From NCBI GenBank assembly GCA_964402035.1, contig CAYOAM010000001.1, positions 243,558 to 307,557 of the forward strand: DNA of 64,000 bases, in the 5' to 3' direction. Position 1 is the first letter of the stretch. Every line of letters starts with the position of its first letter. The translations under genes were made by a program, and so were the position numbers. Shown here one piece after another: positions 15,686 to 23,176 of this stretch. Source of the stretch: an uncultured Candidatus Saccharibacteria bacterium (GTDB lineage Bacteria; Patescibacteriota; Minisyncoccia; Phycocordibacterales; UBA918). Below the pieces are notes generated by a model that had not been told where the DNA came from, searched no databases, and saw only the letters and a program-made list of their open reading frames with translations.

Positions 15686-16717
15686 ATGTCTAGTATTAAC
15701 TTTAAACCTAAACAGGTCACAAAAAAGCTGCTTTCAGCACTGTCAAGCCGTGCTCAGGACGTGCTTACCAAGCGCTATGGTTTAACTGCGGATACTGAGT
15801 CACATACACTCGAAGCTATTGGTCAGATCTACGGCATCACCCGTGAGCGTGTTCGCCAGATCGAAAACCACGCTATTCAGGCTATACAGAAGTCACCAAC
15901 CTATAAGGAGTTTGATGAAACTTTTGAAGAGCTCCGTGCATCCATCGAAGGGTTGGGCACCGTGATCGCCGAGCACGCACTACTTGAGGAACTTGGAAAA
16001 GATGTTGCGGCAAAAAATCATCTTTTTTTCCTGTTGGTGTTGGGAACTCCATTTAACCGCAAAAAGGAGGACGATGCATTTCATCACCGATGGCATATTG
16101 CTTCAGATACAGCAGACAAGGTAGAGAAGGCGTTGACTGAAGTGCATGCGACTCTTTCAGAAGACGATCTCTTTTCTGATGAAGAAATTTTAAATTTGTT
16201 TACTAAAAACCTCGACGAATCAGTAGCACGCAATACTGACGAAGCTACGTTGCGCCGATGGCTTTCTATCTCAAAACGTATTGGACGAAATCCATTGGGA
16301 GAATGGGGTGTTTCTTCAAGTCCCAATGTTCGTGCCAAGGGTATCCGCGATTTTGCGTATCTTACCGTCAAGCGTCACGGTTCACCGATGCACTTTAGAG
16401 AAGTAGCGCGGGCTATCGAAGAATTGTTCAACCGAAAAGCACACATCGCTACCTGTCACAATGAACTCATAAAGGACAAGCGTTTTGTGCTCGTGGGACG
16501 TGGTCTCTATGCACTTACTGAGTGGGGATACTCTGCAGGTGTTGTAAAGGATGTGTTGCGTGAAATTTTGCGCAAAGAAGGAGCGCTTACTCGAAATGAA
16601 ATTATCGACAAGGTCCGAAAGGAACGCTACGTAAAAGACAATACTATTATCGTAAATCTTCAAGATCCTGCACTATTCCGACGATTGCCTGATGGACGCT
16701 ATACCCTTGCTGAATAA
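15686..16717 (+). CDS. sigma-70 region 4 domain-containing protein (not a full sigma factor)
   Basis: N-terminal LSSRAQDVLTKRYGL...EAIGQIYGITRERVRQIENHAIQAIQK is a classic sigma-70 region 4 HTH. The remaining roughly 250 aa are unrelated to sigma regions 1-3. Confidence 0.6.
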   Translation: MSSINFKPKQVTKKLLSALSSRAQDVLTKRYGLTADTESHTLEAIGQIYGITRERVRQIENHAIQAIQKSPTYKEFDETFEELRASIEGLGTVIAEHALLEELGKDVAAKNHLFFLLVLGTPFNRKKEDDAFHHRWHIASDTADKVEKALTEVHATLSEDDLFSDEEILNLFTKNLDESVARNTDEATLRRWLSISKRIGRNPLGEWGVSSSPNVRAKGIRDFAYLTVKRHGSPMHFREVARAIEELFNRKAHIATCHNELIKDKRFVLVGRGLYALTEWGYSAGVVKDVLREILRKEGALTRNEIIDKVRKERYVKDNTIIVNLQDPALFRRLPDGRYTLAE

Positions 16718-16720
16718 ATA

Positions 16721-16748
16721 AAAGCCTCCCCTTGGGAGGCTTTTATTG
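16721..16748 (+). terminator. rho-independent terminator
   Basis: gcctccc-ctt-gggaggc hairpin followed by ttttatt. Confidence 0.7.
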
Positions 16749-16761
16749 TTAGAATACTCTC

Positions 16762-18123
16762 ATGTCAGCTCCTGCCAAAAAGAAAGGAAAGAGTACGCTC
16801 GATATACTTGAAGGATTTGGTGTGAATGGAGGTATTGTCCTTTCAATTCTAGGGCTCTGTTTGATTGGTTTTATAGTACTCTATATCGGAATACCGACCA
16901 CACAGTGGATTTCTTTTGTTTTTTTATCAAGCCCTTTATGGCTGCCGTGGGTTTTGTTCCATGAGTTTTTTAAGAAATGGATGGAGTATGTTGGGATGAG
17001 TTTTGCTTTGGCCCAAGGGCGGACAACGCTCGAAATACAATTTCCCCAGGAAGTTTTTAAATCACCGCTAGCGATGGAGTTGGTACTCAATCAGATGTAC
17101 CAGACAGCAAGTCCAGACAATCATATAGAGACATACTGGGATGGTAAACATCCGCCGACATATGGACTGGAGATTGTATCCGATGGCGGCCGCATCCACT
17201 TTTATATCAATACACCAAAGAAAAAGTTTAAAAACCTAATTGAGACACAACTGTATGCTCAGTATCCCGGCATTGTGGTAAAAGAGTTACCCATCGACTA
17301 TACAGCAGCACTGCCGTGGGATCCGAGTCGTTTTGGTTATTTTGCGTTGCATTTTCGTTTAAAAAACCCTGATCCATTTCCAATAAAAACCTACATCGAT
17401 TTCGGTTTAGATAAGGATCAAAAGGAGGAGTATAAGATCGACCCCATGTCGACTATTCTCGAACTTCTTGGTTCTATTGGTCCAAAAGAAAAAATTTGGA
17501 TACAGATTTTGATATCCGCGCACCGAAAGGTAAATTTTAAGACTGGCAGCTTGCAAGAACATGACGACTGGCAAGGAGCTATTACTGCAGAAATAGACAA
17601 AATAATGAAAAAGCGTGCAGGAAAAAAGAAGAAACCGAGTGGCGAAGAAGAGGAAGAACTTTCTGGTACCCTTACACCGCGTGAGCGCGATATTGTCGCA
17701 TCACTGGAACGTAGCGCGGCAAAAAACGCCTTCAATACGAAGATACGTGCGCTCTATGCTGCTGAACTAGAAGGTCTTCAGATTAGCGAACGTATTGGCC
17801 CCATTATCACCATGTGGCGTTCATTTGATGATGTCACGCGAAATGGTATCGGTGTAGCTTGGCGTAGTGACTTTGATTGGAACTGGTGGCAAGACCCTAG
17901 TGGAAAAAAACGCGCAGCGCATAAAGAGCGTGAACTTGAGGAGTATAAATTGCGCATTTATGAAGGACAAGCCGCCAAGGGTATTGATGGCGGGTTTATA
18001 TTAACGACCGAGGAACTTGCGTCAATCTTTCACCCAGCGGGAGCTGTTCTACTCACTCCTACATTGGAACGAGTACCATCTGCCCGAGCAGAAGCTCCAT
18101 CGAATTTACCTCGTGGGATTTAG
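16762..18123 (+). CDS. hypothetical membrane protein (2 N-terminal TM, large soluble domain)
   Basis: 453-aa ORF with no recognisable domain. A TAGAAT hexamer lies 6 nt upstream of the ATG. Confidence 0.5.
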   Translation: MSAPAKKKGKSTLDILEGFGVNGGIVLSILGLCLIGFIVLYIGIPTTQWISFVFLSSPLWLPWVLFHEFFKKWMEYVGMSFALAQGRTTLEIQFPQEVFKSPLAMELVLNQMYQTASPDNHIETYWDGKHPPTYGLEIVSDGGRIHFYINTPKKKFKNLIETQLYAQYPGIVVKELPIDYTAALPWDPSRFGYFALHFRLKNPDPFPIKTYIDFGLDKDQKEEYKIDPMSTILELLGSIGPKEKIWIQILISAHRKVNFKTGSLQEHDDWQGAITAEIDKIMKKRAGKKKKPSGEEEEELSGTLTPRERDIVASLERSAAKNAFNTKIRALYAAELEGLQISERIGPIITMWRSFDDVTRNGIGVAWRSDFDWNWWQDPSGKKRAAHKERELEEYKLRIYEGQAAKGIDGGFILTTEELASIFHPAGAVLLTPTLERVPSARAEAPSNLPRGI

Positions 18124-18124
18124 T

Positions 18125-19120
18125 ATGAGTGAAATGGAGTCAGCCGAGGTTATTGTTGAGCGCTCATATTTGCGGTCTGGGGTATGGCTGCTTATCATGC
18201 TTGCTGTCATTGCTGTTATCGCCATTGTTTTGGTAGCATTTTTGAATACACCACCAAGTACGTTTACACACAATGCGCGCGTTACGATCGAGCCCGGATC
18301 ATCTCTTGGTGACATTGCAAAAACGCTAAAAGCAAATGGTCTTGTACGTGTGCCGCTACTATTTGAACTTGCGGTCTCAATGCAGGGTGAAGCGGAAAAT
18401 ATGCACGCTGGAATCTATCAGTTTGCTTCCCCTCTTAGTAGCGTCGCTCTTGCCGACGCTATGATACAAAAGACCGCTGCTGTTCCGCCGATACGTGTGA
18501 CGATTCCAGAAGGATCAACCCTCGCAGATTTTGATGAGATACTATCGTCAGCTATCCCACGAATAGAGAAGGGTGCAATCGTTGCTGCAGCTTCAAACAC
18601 GGAGGGTATTTTATTTCCTGATACCTATTTAATACCCGAAGACTACGATGCAACTGATGTTGTCACACTACTCTCAGACACGTTCAAAGAGAAGCTAAAA
18701 CCATTTGCAGCAGATATTATCGAGAGTGGATTTACTGAACAAGAAATTGTCACGTTGGCTTCGCTTGTAGAACGCGAAGCAAACGATAGTACATCAATGC
18801 GTATGGTCTCCGGAATCTTGTTCAATAGATTAGAAATCAATATGCCATTACAAGTTGACGCTGCATTTATGTATCTGCTACAAAAAAGCAGCGCGGAATT
18901 GACTCCAGAAGACCTCGCATATGATTCTCCGTACAATACCTATCTGTATGCCGGTTTGCCGCCGGGACCAATAGCAAGTCCCAGCATCGCCGCGATAGAA
19001 GCAGTTCTAAAGCCAATCGCATCAGAGAATCTGTATTACTTGACGGGGAATGATGGTATGTTTTACTACGCCGAAACATTTGAACAACATAAACTCAACA
19101 AAGAGCGCTATTTGCGCTAG
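18125..19120 (+). CDS. mltG: endolytic murein transglycosylase MltG (YceG family)
   Basis: N-terminal TM, then LVEREA and YNTYLYAGLPPGPIASP motifs of YceG/MltG. Start placed at the ATG immediately after the upstream stop. Confidence 0.85.
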   Translation: MSEMESAEVIVERSYLRSGVWLLIMLAVIAVIAIVLVAFLNTPPSTFTHNARVTIEPGSSLGDIAKTLKANGLVRVPLLFELAVSMQGEAENMHAGIYQFASPLSSVALADAMIQKTAAVPPIRVTIPEGSTLADFDEILSSAIPRIEKGAIVAAASNTEGILFPDTYLIPEDYDATDVVTLLSDTFKEKLKPFAADIIESGFTEQEIVTLASLVEREANDSTSMRMVSGILFNRLEINMPLQVDAAFMYLLQKSSAELTPEDLAYDSPYNTYLYAGLPPGPIASPSIAAIEAVLKPIASENLYYLTGNDGMFYYAETFEQHKLNKERYLR

Positions 19121-19126
19121 TAACCT

Positions 19127-20200
19127 ATGAAAAAACAGACTGTCTTCGTTGGCATGTCCGGTGGCGTCGATTCATCGGTTGCCGCCCTCCTACTTAAGGA
19201 GCAGGGCTACGCGGTAGTTGGTGTATTTATCAAAGTGTGGCAGCCAGATTTTTTATCATGTCACTGGGAAGCCGAGCGTCTGGATGCTATGCGTGTAGCG
19301 GCACATTTGGATATCCCTTTTTTGACATGTGACGCGGAGGATACGTATAAAAAAGATGTAGCTGATTATTTTATTGAATCCTACAAGACTGGCATAACAC
19401 CGAATCCGGATGTTATGTGTAACACCCATATAAAGTTTGGAAGGTTTTTTGAGTTTGCAAAAGAGCATAACGCAACACATATCGCTACCGGACATTATGC
19501 GCGAACAAAGTCCGATACTATTCCAGCGCAGCTCTTGCGAGGAGCGGATGTAGTAAAGGATCAAAGTTATTTTTTGTGGAATATTAGTGAAGATGCTTTG
19601 CGGCATACACTCTTTCCGATAGGACATCTCCAAAAATCTGAAGTACGGGCCATAGCGACGCGTGCGAACCTGCCGACGGCAACAAAAGATGAGAGTCAAG
19701 GAATTTGTTTTTTGGGTCACGTTGATATGCGTGAATTTCTTTCTCACTATATCGATCTCAAAGATGGAGTAGTTGTTGACGAACAGGGCGCTAGTATCGG
19801 TAGTCATCATGGCGCAGTACTCTATACCATAGGGCAGCGTCACGGTTTTCACATCGATCCAAAGCATGCAAGTACTGCTCCGTATTTTGTCATCAATAAA
19901 GACAAAGCACAGAATACGATTATGGTGAGCACTCATAAACCACAGCGACGTGATCTAGAGCTCACGCTTACCAATCTTCGCTATTATGCAGATTCAACAT
20001 CCTTACCCAAGACGCTCGATGTACAGATACGGTATCGGCAAAAACCGCTCCAGGCTAGGGTCACAGGGACGACGGCTTCAACACTGTCACTGACTTTTAC
20101 GGAACCTGCAGATATTCCGGACCAGGGGCAATCCTGCGTTCTCTATAGCAACGATCGCGTGCTCGCGGGTGGTATTATTAGTGCTTCAGTATTACATTAA
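19127..20200 (+). CDS. mnmA: tRNA-specific 2-thiouridylase MnmA
   Basis: PP-loop FVGMSGGVDSSVAA, CNTHIKF motif and full-length MnmA similarity. Confidence 0.9.
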   Translation: MKKQTVFVGMSGGVDSSVAALLLKEQGYAVVGVFIKVWQPDFLSCHWEAERLDAMRVAAHLDIPFLTCDAEDTYKKDVADYFIESYKTGITPNPDVMCNTHIKFGRFFEFAKEHNATHIATGHYARTKSDTIPAQLLRGADVVKDQSYFLWNISEDALRHTLFPIGHLQKSEVRAIATRANLPTATKDESQGICFLGHVDMREFLSHYIDLKDGVVVDEQGASIGSHHGAVLYTIGQRHGFHIDPKHASTAPYFVINKDKAQNTIMVSTHKPQRRDLELTLTNLRYYADSTSLPKTLDVQIRYRQKPLQARVTGTTASTLSLTFTEPADIPDQGQSCVLYSNDRVLAGGIISASVLH

Positions 20201-20208
20201 AACATATC

Positions 20209-21048
20209 ATGCTTGAACATATTAATATTCGTAAAGCCGATGGGACGACCGAAGCATTCCAAATGTCTAAATTGCGTACGTCACTAAAGCGCGCGGGAGC
20301 ATCGGAGACTGAGATGACACAGATAACGAGGACCATAGAGTCAGAGCTGGTGGAAGGTATGACGACGGAACAAATCTATCGCCATGCCTTTGATCTTTTG
20401 CGACAAGGTGAAAAAACTACAGCCGCACGCTACTCACTGCGACGCGCCATGATAGGTCTTGGACCAACCGGTTTTCCTTTTGAAGATTATTTGGCAGCGC
20501 TTTTTACTGCCCAGGGGTATAAGACACGTACACGAGCGATCGTAAAGGGAAAGTGCGTATCGCATGAAGTCGATGTGGTGGCATATAAAGACAGCGACTG
20601 CTTTGTTGCGGAGGCAAAATTTCATATGCAACCGGGTATAAAATCTGATCTGCAAGTCATACTGTACTCGCACGCTCGCTTTCTTGATATCGTAGGCGTC
20701 AAGGTACACAAAAATGATATTGCGACCATCACGAAGCCTTGGGTGATCACGAATACCAAGTTCACTTCAACAGCAATTCAATATGCAAAATGTGCAGGTG
20801 TGCATTTGCTTTCATGGGATTATCCAAAAAAGGACAACTTGCAGCAGATGATTGAAACGACAAAACTATATCCTATAACAGTTCTTCAGAGTCTTTCATT
20901 GCGAGACAAAAAAACACTACTTTCACAAGGGACTGTGCTGTGCAGTGACGTTATTGACAATCAACAGCTTTTGTCATCTGCTGGTGTACCGCGCAATAAA
21001 ATGAGCGCTATTTTGGACGAAAGTGTACGACTATGCACAATTAATTAA
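20209..21048 (+). CDS. ATP-cone domain fused to an Mrr-type restriction-endonuclease-like (PD-(D/E)xK) domain, with a C-terminal HhH-like tail
   Basis: N-terminus INIRKADGTTEAFQMSKLRTSLKRAG matches the ATP-cone. FEDYLAALFTAQGY...HEVDVVAYKD...AEAKF...VITNTKFTSTAIQYA matches the Mrr_cat consensus (D, E-x-K and Q motifs). Confidence 0.6.
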   Translation: MLEHINIRKADGTTEAFQMSKLRTSLKRAGASETEMTQITRTIESELVEGMTTEQIYRHAFDLLRQGEKTTAARYSLRRAMIGLGPTGFPFEDYLAALFTAQGYKTRTRAIVKGKCVSHEVDVVAYKDSDCFVAEAKFHMQPGIKSDLQVILYSHARFLDIVGVKVHKNDIATITKPWVITNTKFTSTAIQYAKCAGVHLLSWDYPKKDNLQQMIETTKLYPITVLQSLSLRDKKTLLSQGTVLCSDVIDNQQLLSSAGVPRNKMSAILDESVRLCTIN

Positions 21049-21053
21049 TTGCA

Positions 21054-21062
21054 TGCTATAAT
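21054..21062 (+). promoter_or_regulatory. extended -10 (TGcTATAAT) internal promoter for the downstream gene
   Basis: Overlaps the end of the ATP-cone gene. Followed by a 44-nt leader containing a 2x10-bp tandem repeat cattaaccga (21071-21090). Confidence 0.4.
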
Positions 21063-21105
21063 CGACCGCGCATTAACCGACATTAACCGATTAGCGTTTT
21101 CCTTT

Positions 21106-21687
21106 ATGGAAGAACAAGAAAAAAAACAAAAAACAATAGTAGCATTCATCGCAGGTCTATTGATTGGAGGATTGCTCGTGTGGGTGTTTGGAGTATCGCC
21201 AAAGGATGTAAAGAAAGAAGTAGCAGTTGGTAAGACTGACGTTACCGATGTTTCTGATACCGTGAAAGATGCAGAGGTTGCTAGTGAGACAAAGACAAAC
21301 GGAAAGGGAGGTGAAGTTGTAGAAAAGAAACCGGCGGTGACAGAGACCGTTGCAAAAGGTGCGGGTTCAATCTCAGTTGCTGACCAGGATGCTGGAGCGG
21401 TCGTCACGTTGGGTGCGTTTACTATGCCAGTTGATAATGCATGGATTGTAGTCCATGAACTAAATGCGGGAGGCACGTTAGGAAATGCCCTTGGTGCATC
21501 TCGTTACTCAAAGACAGAAGGACTTATTCCTAAAACTGTTGAACTACTACGCTCAACAGAAGCGGGAAAGACCTACCATGTCGTACTATACAGCGAGAAT
21601 GGTGACCGAGTATTTGATCTAAAGGAAGATGCTTTGATTACCACCGAAGGTGGTGATCGAATTGAGGACGCCTTCAAGACAAACTAG
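21106..21687 (+). CDS. hypothetical secreted/membrane-anchored protein
   Basis: Signal-anchor IVAFIAGLLIGGLLVWVFG, a low-complexity Lys/Glu/Thr linker, and a roughly 100-aa C-terminal domain. The track start (TTG at 21049) is replaced by the internal ATG. Confidence 0.45.
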   Translation: MEEQEKKQKTIVAFIAGLLIGGLLVWVFGVSPKDVKKEVAVGKTDVTDVSDTVKDAEVASETKTNGKGGEVVEKKPAVTETVAKGAGSISVADQDAGAVVTLGAFTMPVDNAWIVVHELNAGGTLGNALGASRYSKTEGLIPKTVELLRSTEAGKTYHVVLYSENGDRVFDLKEDALITTEGGDRIEDAFKTN

Positions 21688-21706
21688 GTTCAAAAGTATA
21701 CGCACT

Positions 21707-21735
21707 AAAAAACACCTCTACTGAGGTGTTTTTTA
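21707..21735 (+). terminator. rho-independent terminator
   Basis: aacacctc-tact-gaggtgtt hairpin, preceded by an A-run and followed by tttttt. Confidence 0.75.
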
Positions 21736-21758
21736 GTATATGCTACACTGTCCCGTAT

Positions 21759-22598
21759 ATGGGTTTTGGGTACAGCGTCAGAAAGCCAGAATACTGTTTC
21801 AATCCAAAGCTGCACAGCAAAGGCAGCAAGAAGCCTTTTAGCATTAGTCGATCAAAAATTGACCTATTTGTTGAGTGCGCACAGTGCTTTTTTCTTGATC
21901 AGCGTTTTGGTATAAAGCGTCCAGATAGTTTTCCACTCACACTCAACAATGCGGTGGATGAGCTCATGAAGCGTGAGTTTGATCTATTGCGTACATCACA
22001 AAGCCCTCATCCGCTTATGAAAAAGTATGGTATTGATGCAGTGCCATTTGCACATCCTGACTTAGAAACATGGCGGGACGCATTGAAAGCTGGGGTGGGG
22101 TATTTGGAACCTACGACAAACCTTTTTATACGCGGTGGGATTGATGACGTTTGGATCAATAGCAACAAGGAGCTCCATATTGTTGACTATAAAGCGACGA
22201 GCAAAAAAGAGAAGGTTTCGCTCGATGCTGCTTGGCAAGATGCATACAAACGGCAAGTTGAGGTGTACCAATGGCTTTTTCGAAAAAACAATTTTGCTGT
22301 TTCTCCGATCGCTTATTTTGTGTATGCAAATGGAGACGCAAGCGCACGCACGTTCGATGGTAAGCTTGATTTTGAAACAACCATAATTTCCTACAAAGGC
22401 GACGACCAATGGATTGAATCTACGATTGTTGATCTACACCGTTGTCTCATGGATGAAGCTATTCCGAAGGCAAGTGTCGATTGCTCGTATTGTGCGTATC
22501 GGCAAGTTGCAGGGAAAATACTGTATATCGACATGTTAAAGAAACGCGGCAGTGTATCACCACGTCCAGTCGTTAAGATCAAGAAAGCACGATCATGA
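21759..22598 (+). CDS. PD-(D/E)xK nuclease, Cas4/RecB-like, with a Cys cluster
   Basis: GIDDVWINSNKELHIVDYKA carries the D...D-x-K catalytic motifs. N-terminal CAQC and C-terminal C-x13-C-x2-C cysteines suggest an Fe-S cluster. Start moved to the ATG downstream of the terminator; the track's GTG start lies inside the hairpin. Confidence 0.5.
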   Translation: MGFGYSVRKPEYCFNPKLHSKGSKKPFSISRSKIDLFVECAQCFFLDQRFGIKRPDSFPLTLNNAVDELMKREFDLLRTSQSPHPLMKKYGIDAVPFAHPDLETWRDALKAGVGYLEPTTNLFIRGGIDDVWINSNKELHIVDYKATSKKEKVSLDAAWQDAYKRQVEVYQWLFRKNNFAVSPIAYFVYANGDASARTFDGKLDFETTIISYKGDDQWIESTIVDLHRCLMDEAIPKASVDCSYCAYRQVAGKILYIDMLKKRGSVSPRPVVKIKKARS

Positions 22599-23176
22599 TG
22601 TATTCATTTCGCATAGAGCAGGCGATACGAGCAGCGGCAGTGCTCCATGGCAGTTCGTCACGTCGTGGTCGCGCTCCCTATCCGCACATCACGCACGCAT
22701 TTGCTGTCTCATGCATTGTTGCAGACTACACAACTGAAGAAGATGTTATTATTGCTGCCTTACTGCACGACACCCTTGACGCCACCAACTATACAGAAAA
22801 TGAGTTAGCAATGGATTTTGGCGATAGCGTTCGGTCTATGGTATCCAGTATTTCTATACAAAAAAGTCTCACATCCGCGGCCGAAGCTGAGGAGCAAAAA
22901 AATATCTTTCTCGATCAGTTAGAGAACGCATCTCAACAATCACTTATTATTGTGGCGGCAGATACACTACACAACATGCGCTCTATTATCGAGGAGTACG
23001 CAGAGGACGCGCAGGGGTATCTTTTAGATTTTGGTGGCTCCGCGCGCGAGCGTTTGGTATATTACCAAAAGTTGAGTAACATACTGAATCGAAGTCTTGA
23101 AAATCCAATTGTCCATGAATTCAATCATGTGCTGCATGAGTTTCGGACATTCTTAGACTATGAGAAAAAAAGGTAA
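22595..23176 (+). CDS. HD-domain protein, small alarmone hydrolase-like ((p)ppGpp hydrolase domain)
   Basis: RGRAPYPHITHAFAVSCIVA...IIAALLHDTLDAT matches the RelA/SpoT-type HD hydrolase motifs. About 190 aa, with no synthetase domain. Confidence 0.6.
   Translation: MMYSFRIEQAIRAAAVLHGSSSRRGRAPYPHITHAFAVSCIVADYTTEEDVIIAALLHDTLDATNYTENELAMDFGDSVRSMVSSISIQKSLTSAAEAEEQKNIFLDQLENASQQSLIIVAADTLHNMRSIIEEYAEDAQGYLLDFGGSARERLVYYQKLSNILNRSLENPIVHEFNHVLHEFRTFLDYEKKR

Follow-up and report, generated by a model that had tools for sequence, protein, structure and literature searches.

An ATP-cone joined to an AF1548/Mrr-type nuclease domain: an ancient protein family with a predicted role in nucleotide-gated nucleic-acid turnover

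The gene, its domains and its locus

The stretch of DNA analysed here, 64,000 nucleotides from an uncultured Candidatus Saccharibacteria bacterium (contig CAYOAM010000001.1) and called the window below, carries a complete gene for a protein of 279 residues, the target of this study, in which an ATP-cone is followed by an AF1548/Mrr-type nuclease domain and a helical (HhH)2 tail (Table 1). The original prediction, made from the sequence alone, had proposed an ATP-cone fused directly to an Mrr-type PD-(D/E)xK endonuclease domain with an HhH-like C-terminus, and every peptide that it quoted is found in the translation. An identical protein (P0001) is called on public contigs. Both named domains score above their curated Pfam cutoffs within one open reading frame (ORF), the cone (PF03477) with E 2e-9 and 38.3 bits against a cutoff of 25.8 and Mrr_cat (PF04471) with E 2.9e-6 and 27.8 bits against a cutoff of 21, and the direct fusion is thereby confirmed. 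An NCBIfam search of the protein gave zero matches. Because the cone occupies the very N-terminus, without a signal peptide, the protein is cytoplasmic.

An AlphaFold model built on 33 homologues reached a mean predicted local distance difference test (pLDDT) score of 84. Its best Foldseek match is 1Y88, the structure of AF1548 from Archaeoglobus fulgidus (E 3e-15, template modelling score (TM) 0.77 normalised to the target), followed by the PD-(D/E)xK nucleases Can2, Cdn1, MspJI and R2 endonuclease, and the model also matches the ATP-cones of NrdB, NrdR and class Ia and III reductases. A restriction-endonuclease-like alpha/beta core fold is supported by these matches.

Conservation was read from an alignment of 150 cluster representatives, drawn from a library clustered at 50% identity, and 120 proteins of the AF1548 clade. 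The D/E-x-K residues E120, D122, E135 and K137, together with E92, are identical in all 150 representatives and all 120 AF1548-clade proteins, and G85, G88, F91 and R157 are likewise identical in 270 of 270. The original prediction withstands the conservation check that had been proposed with it. D122, E135 and K137 align with D38, E51 and K53 of AF1548, which were predicted to be catalytic in a 2007 Global Ocean Sampling paper where AF1548 was itself predicted to be a restriction endonuclease (PMC1821046). In three relatives of 324-403 residues (P0130, P0147 and P0245) the match comes in two stretches broken near query residues 162-165, which suggests an insertion there. The target also has a TNTKFT motif, presumably like the one that follows the core strands in Mrr-type catalytic domains.

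The cone shows the beta-hairpin cap and four-helix bundle of the ATP-cone fold in the model, with strands at residues 6-8 and 14-16 and helices at 19-28, 33-46, 53-66 and 77-81. Foldseek matches it with probability 1.0 to NrdR (root-mean-square deviation (rmsd) ~3.2 Å over 85-88 columns), NrdB (5OLK) and NrdA. The domain is carried by 149 of the 150 representatives and 114 of the 120 AF1548-clade proteins (263/270), and among the representatives K9 and G12 are each kept in 148, K21 in 145 and T53 in 135. Within the motif V-x-K-R-D-G-x-x-E-x-F-x-x-x-K-I the target keeps K9, D11, G12, E15, F17, K21 and L22 and replaces Arg10 by Ala; position 10 is Arg in 65 of the 114 cone-bearing archaeal members and Ala or Ser in most bacterial members. 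When the cone profile was aligned by hhalign to the N-terminus of E. coli NrdA, the probability was 92%, with K9, E15, K21, T53 and Y57 paired to NrdA K9, E15, K21, T55 and H59 but A10 paired to R10. K9, E15, K21 and T53 of the target thus stand opposite nucleotide ligands of NrdA.

The top matches of the cone profile among PDB sequences are designed helical-repeat proteins and were judged spurious. As that search was swamped by designed repeats, the cone call rests on Pfam, Foldseek and hhalign. One helical segment, KLRTSLKRAGASETEMTQITRTIESELV (residues 21-48, window positions 20269-20352), gives strong spurious matches of this kind, for example to 5CWB and 8CWY, and is a trap for automated annotation.

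Cone and nuclease are joined by a near-invariant stretch, residues 72-92, that begins in the last cone helix and ends in the first nuclease helix with E92. It overlaps residues 69-84, the sole low-confidence segment of the model, and a basic residue stands at position 78 of the last cone helix in 268 of 270 homologues. We read this stretch of the model as a hinge whose conformation may be set by a ligand or a partner subunit.

The C-terminal domain scores slightly under the cutoff of its own profile, AF1548-like_C (PF22357, residues 221-271, 20.3 bits against 23.9), which is recorded in many homologues; HHH_5 (PF14520) is flagged in one homologue. Modelled alone, the last 75 residues reach pLDDT 83. 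The first Foldseek match of this separate model is again 1Y88 (TMq 0.73), then come the N-terminal domains of Rad51/RadA (TMq 0.63-0.66, rmsd 2.0-2.5 Å), and further matches are to the RNA polymerase alpha-CTD, BAF and Y-family polymerases. The E-values are weak because the domain is small; the matches nevertheless form a coherent set, all of them (HhH)2-type duplex-DNA binders, and on the strength of the model they support the HhH-like tail.

At the locus itself the gene follows mnmA by 8 nt, and the two are probably co-transcribed. Scans for promoter and terminator consensus stayed at shuffle background apart from one promoter-like site, overlapping the last codons of the target, and one strong hairpin, which is the probable end of the transcription unit.

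Table 1. Coordinates of the features discussed; plain positions refer to the window, and those after an L number to that locus of a relative
Feature	Position	Strand	Basis or remark
Target coding sequence	20209..21048	+	complete, ATG to TAA, 279 residues
ATP-cone, residues 5-79	20221..20445	+	Pfam, Foldseek, hhalign; motif K9-A10-D11-G12..E15.F17...K21-L22
Near-invariant AARYSLRRAxxxLGPTGFPFE, residues 72-92	20422..20484	+	last cone helix, hinge, start of first nuclease helix
Mrr_cat/AF1548-type PD-(D/E)xK domain, residues 88-202	20470..20814	+	Pfam, 1Y88 match, Foldseek
Predicted catalytic core E120-x-D122...E135-A-K137	20566..20619	+	invariant; equivalent to AF1548 D38/E51/K53
TNTKFT motif, residues 181-186	20749..20766	+	N182 268/270, T183 258/270
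(HhH)2-like helical domain, residues 205-276	20821..21036	+	PF22357, separate model, Foldseek; Rad51-N-terminal/RNA polymerase alpha-CTD type
mnmA (tRNA 2-thiouridylase)	19127..20200	+	Pfam
DUF7282 membrane-anchored protein	21106..21687	+	conserved +1 neighbour
Promoter-like TGCACA-17-TATAAT, extended -10 TG	21034-21062		upstream of the DUF7282 gene
16-bp perfect hairpin (AAAAAACACCTC...GAGGTGTTTTTT)	21703-21738	both	A and T run flanks, terminator-like; between the DUF7282 and PDDEXK_1 genes
Conserved block, Paceibacteria-type Patescibacteria	15686-23176 (and L001-L080)		Sigma70_r4/HARE-HTH, DUF8128, YceG/MltG, MnmA, target, DUF7282, PDDEXK_1, HD_4
Four-gene cassette, Bacteroidota/Chlamydiota	L081:1972-6597; L082:9001-13608; L084:7001-11648		gaps often 0-15 nt or overlapping
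Three Archaeoglobales loci	L168:3722-6807; L169:4958-6786; L170:5193-6798		upstream amino-acid permease-Usp fusion, CorA, MscS-type channel

The family and its gene neighbourhoods

More than 7000 relatives share the length and architecture of the target, and the fusion therefore lies far beyond chance. They form 448 clusters at E <= 1e-30 in the same 50% identity library, and at least 591 GTDB species genomes carry a relative. With the three-domain architecture found across Archaea, Patescibacteria, Bacteroidota and Chlamydiota, the family is ancient and common to Archaea and Bacteria; it is prominent in Patescibacteria and present in DPANN archaea. Databases label its members 'ATP cone domain-containing protein' (RefSeq), 'restriction endonuclease/ATP cone domain-containing protein/AF1548-like protein' (JGI) and, elsewhere, 'restriction endonuclease', 'ATPase' or 'Holliday junction resolvase-like'. 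The fusion had been put forward as uncharacterised, and in one sense this holds, since our literature search found no experimental or comparative study of an ATP-cone-nuclease fusion, nor a characterised nuclease under ATP-cone control, and the 2007 paper on AF1548 was its one pertinent result. Its novelty is less than was implied, because databases already label it and 1Y88 was solved in 2004. What the family offers is a regulatory input, known until now from nucleotide synthesis alone, on a PD-(D/E)xK nuclease.

AF1548 is the only strong solved relative by sequence (1Y88 against target residues 91-273, phmmer E 2.7e-33). The structure is a structural-genomics one and covers the nuclease and HhH part. 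Its crystallised chain of 199 residues starts FQGHM-VARLLEEHG, which we read as what is left of a tag, with the natural protein entered at an internal position. By comparison, a protein of 265 residues that is 99% identical to the AF1548 core query (P0391, L170:6001-6798) starts MLRVRKRDGRLEEF, and its N-terminus holds a canonical cone, with VRKRDG, and the invariant GFxFE segment. Judged by these sequences, the 1Y88 construct appears to be N-terminally truncated, without the ATP-cone and the invariant GF(P/G)FE segment, and the original AF1548 start codon was probably mis-called. When the AF1548 core served as query, the archaeal relatives retrieved were nearly all 260-280 residues long and equipped with an ATP-cone; they belong to Archaeoglobi, Geoglobus, Ferroglobus, Nanoarchaeota, Aenigmarchaeota, Korarchaeota and Bathyarchaeia. 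With a cone in natural AF1548 and its archaeal relatives, the cone-nuclease-(HhH)2 arrangement is thus the ancestral norm of the family and not a local fusion. If the sole solved structure is truncated, no structure has yet shown the regulatory half of the family.

Gene neighbourhoods in Patescibacteria were compared in 77 loci from GTDB species genomes, mostly Paceibacteria-type, obtained from the 80 best matches to the target. Upstream, mnmA is directly adjacent in 65 of them, YceG/MltG lies at -2 in 44, and a DUF8128 membrane protein at -3 and a Sigma70_r4/HARE-HTH protein at -4 are each found in 42. Downstream, DUF7282 is at +1 in 46 loci and a Cas4-like PDDEXK_1 protein at +1 to +3 in 61, often with a protein of HD_4, an HD-domain family in Pfam, next. 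Median identity to the window proteins is 49.6% for the target and 53.0% for MnmA, and across 65 loci, selected as best matches to the target, the two identities covary (r = 0.56, p = 1.5e-6). Given conservation close to that of MnmA, this covariation and the conserved synteny, the target behaves as a vertically inherited housekeeping gene. The best-conserved member of the block is the Sigma70_r4/HARE-HTH protein, with a median identity of 64.5%, above MnmA. The PDDEXK_1 neighbour has CxxC pairs, a pattern that suggests an Fe-S cluster.

Outside Patescibacteria, a query based on Bacteroidota and Chlamydiota yielded 90 loci for comparison, of which 75 include an ORF downstream; their sources are Bacteroidota, Chlamydiota, Kapaibacteriota and metagenome contigs without assignment. 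All recurrent neighbours lie on the same strand as the target. A beta-CASP/RMMBL nuclease of the metallo-beta-lactamase (MBL) fold recurs in 43 loci, at +1 in 28, +2 in 14 and +3 in one; at +1 the median gap to the target is 3 nt, and 24 of the 28 gaps fall between -34 and +21 nt. Other recurrent neighbours are tandem Usp proteins (29 loci), an AMP-phosphorylase-like 'thymidine phosphorylase family' protein (17), a phosphoribosyl pyrophosphate (PRPP)-synthetase-like protein (15), a 2-hydroxyacid dehydrogenase (14), a P-type ATPase (13), an AAA_28/dNK-like kinase (9) and PFK (9). The target gene here heads an operon with the beta-CASP, AMP-phosphorylase-like and PRPP-synthetase-like genes. In RefSeq the plasmid copies from Pontibacter and Criblamydia stand in a cassette labelled 'ATP cone domain-containing protein', 'MBL fold metallo-hydrolase', 'thymidine phosphorylase family protein' and 'ribose-phosphate pyrophosphokinase', which in Criblamydia adjoins phosphoketolase, glycogen phosphorylase and acetate kinase; the same four genes are found in a Bacteroidota contig.

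The phosphorylase partner matches PDB 4GA4/4GA5/4GA6 at E 1e-99, far better than it matches true thymidine phosphorylases (E 1e-42), and we take the 4GA4-6 entries to be a Thermococcus AMP phosphorylase acting on ribonucleoside monophosphates. For the beta-CASP partner the nearest matches are RNase TTHA0252 and CPSF-type ribonucleases. In Bradyrhizobium diazoefficiens microoxia induces bll3115-3117, a homologous trio of genes for an MBL-fold, a PRPP-synthetase-like and a phosphorylase protein (PMC6515984); this set is documented for the three genes only. The low-oxygen lxa locus of Burkholderia was considered as a possible home of the gene and set aside, since the published locus has Usp, acetate kinase and P-type ATPase genes but lacks the target, and we use it as an analogy only.

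In Bacteroidota, genes for a K+ channel (Ion_trans_2), MgtC and a P-type ATPase recur near the target, which together with the transport genes of the three Archaeoglobales loci amounts to an association with ion homeostasis. Two small ORFs with no Pfam match were also seen, mostly in metagenome loci from the Bacteroidota-based query: one of ~84 residues in 16 loci, always at +1 (e.g. L092:6874-7128), and one of ~145 residues in 11 loci, close downstream (e.g. L156:8225-8662).

Possible roles and rival explanations

We propose that the protein is an adenine-nucleotide-gated endonuclease that serves nucleic-acid turnover and nucleotide/energy homeostasis, not phage defence, a proposal to which we give an even chance. 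The ATP-cone would bind an adenine nucleotide of the ATP/dATP class, the AF1548/Mrr-type core would cut nucleic acid by means of E92/E120/D122/E135/K137, and the (HhH)2 domain would hold nucleic acid without sequence specificity. In ribonucleotide reductases (RNRs) and NrdR, adenine-nucleotide binding to the cone alters quaternary structure and thereby controls the output domain. By analogy, binding in the target would probably shift domain packing or oligomeric state through the hinge and so switch the nuclease on or off, either by assembling or disassembling a cleavage-competent oligomer or by docking the cone over the active site. Feedback as in RNR, with dATP off and ATP on, would suit a DNase for salvage of deoxynucleoside monophosphates, and an energy-charge logic, in which ATP turns the enzyme off, would match the Usp and fermentation islands. 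The regulated turnover would most likely supply mononucleotides for salvage or catabolism. The Mrr-type core and (HhH)2 tail speak for DNA as the substrate, the RNase-type beta-CASP and AMP-phosphorylase-like partners for RNA. For the target, then, we infer nucleotide binding, switch direction, substrate and physiological role.

Several points weigh against this proposal. For every family member the role is read from sequence, a model and gene context, and a non-specific cytoplasmic DNase is hazardous to its own cell. By sequence the cone matches solved cones weakly (E ~0.03, profile against PDB sequences), and Arg10 of the RNR and NrdR cones gives way to Ala or Ser in the bacterial ones, so that ligand identity and affinity may differ. 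A search of the 64-kb window found none of the beta-CASP, phosphorylase, PRPP-synthetase-like or AAA_28 partners, and in the lineage of the window the genes for the first three are not adjacent to the target; the link to the pathway is therefore carried over from distant relatives. Archaeal contexts differ as well, the start of the target gene abutting or overlapping the end of a membrane transport gene. Finally, gene order in Patescibacteria may be conserved less for its function than because the genomes are compact and rearrange slowly.

The original prediction had seen an obvious candidate for a phage-defence effector, and it is reasonable to ask whether the protein might sense a nucleotide pool disturbed by infection and destroy phage or host DNA, or act as an Mrr-like type IV enzyme with an ATP-cone as regulator. 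Mrr_cat is a domain that one expects in restriction enzymes and in effectors of defence, the C-terminus of ZorD among them; the nearest folds after AF1548 include the CRISPR-ancillary Can2 and Cdn1 as well as MspJI; and nucleotide-pool sensing is an established theme in defence. The regions of the two plasmid copies also hold an AbiE-type toxin-antitoxin pair and an integrase (Criblamydia) and an IS5 transposase (Pontibacter). However, no relative was found among 50,697 phage records (tblastn) or in a scan of 2.9 million viral contigs, and these two plasmid copies are the only full-length matches among 72,556 plasmids (tblastn). PADLOC gave no full-length model match on the target, only a ZorD C-terminal Mrr-like segment (23 bits) and a weak match to PDC-S02. 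Pfam searches up to E 1 revealed no Mrr_N-type modification-reader domain, and the target has no methyltransferase partner. The neighbourhoods contain no defence genes among the 46 families that recur in at least 3 loci: a PADLOC scan of representatives of all of these (E <= 1e-5) matched five proteins only, each by generic domain similarity, namely an ABC-transporter ATPase (mad3, AriA, HEC and similar), a PCMT-like methyltransferase (mad2), PDDEXK_1 (Cas4), Sigma70_r4 (MzaA) and MnmA (QueC). A neighbouring defence system built on mad2, mad3, AriA and HEC was accordingly rejected, its matches tracing to the transporter ATPase and the methyltransferase. The neighbours are instead housekeeping genes or genes of energy stress and nucleotide catabolism, the MnmA-like evolution and synteny fit vertical inheritance, and defence genes, which evolve fast, do not typically have motifs that stay nearly invariant from one domain of life to another. 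We thus find the call for phage defence unsupported and regard such a role as improbable. The second suggestion of the original prediction, genome surveillance linked to deoxynucleoside triphosphates, may still hold.

Three further explanations keep the gene within core metabolism. The protein could be a structure-specific nuclease of DNA repair or recombination (a resolvase, flap or fork enzyme) tuned to the deoxynucleoside triphosphate (dNTP)/ATP pool, coupling DNA processing to replication capacity. We consider this unlikely, though several points favour it: the (HhH)2 tail is like the DNA-binding domain at the N-terminus of Rad51/RadA, some relatives are labelled 'Holliday junction resolvase-like endonuclease', vertical inheritance and strong conservation suit a core enzyme of DNA metabolism, and PDDEXK_1, an Ogt-like protein and UDG recur nearby in Patescibacteria. 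Membership of the Hjc family itself was rejected, since the target has no match to the Hjc profile PF01870 in Pfam, only two archaeal homologues are flagged with it, and in Geoglobus a distinct Hjc gene lies ~2 kb away from the family member. The operon partners in Bacteroidota and Chlamydiota, an RNase-type beta-CASP protein and nucleotide-catabolic enzymes, are moreover not repair proteins. Those same partners, the first closest to TTHA0252/CPSF-type RNases and bearing an RMMBL RNA-specificity domain, the phosphorylase closest to 4GA4-6, would fit an endoribonuclease that starts the decay of bulk RNA such as rRNA under energy stress and hands the fragments to the beta-CASP exoribonuclease, and the conserved Patescibacterial neighbour MnmA is a tRNA enzyme. 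Against this variant in substrate of our proposal, which we judge distinctly unlikely, the known substrate of Mrr_cat enzymes is DNA, and an (HhH)2 domain usually has duplex DNA as its ligand. A non-catalytic, nucleotide-responsive DNA-binding regulator, with a degenerate nuclease fold used for binding DNA, would follow the logic of NrdR, where an ATP-cone is likewise paired with a DNA-binding module, and the cone of the target is structurally like that of NrdR. The five predicted catalytic residues would hardly be invariant in 270 of 270 homologues had catalysis been lost, and the target is no NrdR: its cone begins at residue 5, the Zn-ribbon is missing and a nuclease domain comes next. Such a regulator we hold to be very improbable.

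Wider meaning and likeness to known systems

Returning to a nucleotide-gated endonuclease of turnover and homeostasis, it is tempting to speculate, although we lean towards doubt here, that the family is a catabolic counterpart of RNR control, in which the cone reads the adenine (deoxy)nucleotide pool, gates the endonuclease and opens a route from nucleic acid to mononucleotides. ATP-cones are known from experiment as the master switch of RNRs and NrdR, and a cone with a nuclease as its output would carry that logic beyond nucleotide synthesis into the breakdown of nucleic acids. Were this true, the route in Bacteroidota and Chlamydiota would continue in the same operon through the beta-CASP exonuclease and the AMP-phosphorylase-like and PRPP-synthetase-like enzymes, and the family would represent a previously unrecognised, ancient allosteric checkpoint on nucleic-acid degradation. 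Patescibacteria and DPANN archaea lack nucleotide synthesis by published accounts and obtain nucleotides from outside. In such nucleotide-auxotrophic cells the protein would be a gatekeeper that waits for a low pool before it turns DNA or RNA, scavenged or in surplus, into nucleotides and carbon, and the family could help to explain their nucleotide supply. It also offers a candidate first step for the AMP-phosphorylase pathway and for the stress/hypoxia islands of marine Bacteroidota.

That pathway is the nearest metabolic comparison. Two papers report that bacteria belonging to the candidate phyla radiation (CPR) use nucleotide catabolism by AMP phosphorylase and RuBisCO (PMC5113843, PMC6389311). 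An AMP-phosphorylase-like enzyme, the point of contact with this archaeal/CPR pentose-bisphosphate pathway, is co-operonic with the target gene in Bacteroidota and Chlamydiota; the literature that we found assigns no nuclease step to the pathway, and the 64-kb window contains none of its genes.

Among nucleases, AF1548 is closest and belongs to the same family. Structurally aligned, the two are 34% identical; they have their D/E-x-K residues and C-terminal (HhH)2 domain in common, and AF1548 has TNTKFS where the target has TNTKFT. The archaeal AF1548-type cone keeps Arg10, whereas the target has Ala10. E. coli Mrr, other Mrr_cat type IV enzymes and MspJI have the Mrr_cat-type PD-(D/E)xK domain in common with the target. 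The Mrr type IV enzymes carry an N-terminal DNA-binding domain that reads modifications where the target has its ATP-cone, and the target is far more conserved than they are and lies outside defence or mobile contexts. Can2 and Cdn1, which sense cyclic oligoadenylates, are like the target in fusing a sensor of small nucleotides to a PD-(D/E)xK nuclease. Their sensor is a CARF or similar domain for another ligand in a defence context, and their structural likeness is confined to the nuclease core (TM ~0.3).

The closest parallel in regulation is with class I and III RNRs and NrdR, which have the fold of the sensor in common with the target and, in part, its N-terminal nucleotide-binding motif, though with Arg10 in place of the Ala or Ser of the bacterial target clades. 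The output in those systems is a reductase or a Zn-ribbon repressor, whereas in the target it is a predicted nuclease. The logic that we would expect, by analogy, is the same in all of them: an adenine nucleotide binds the cone and thereby, through quaternary structure, governs the output domain.

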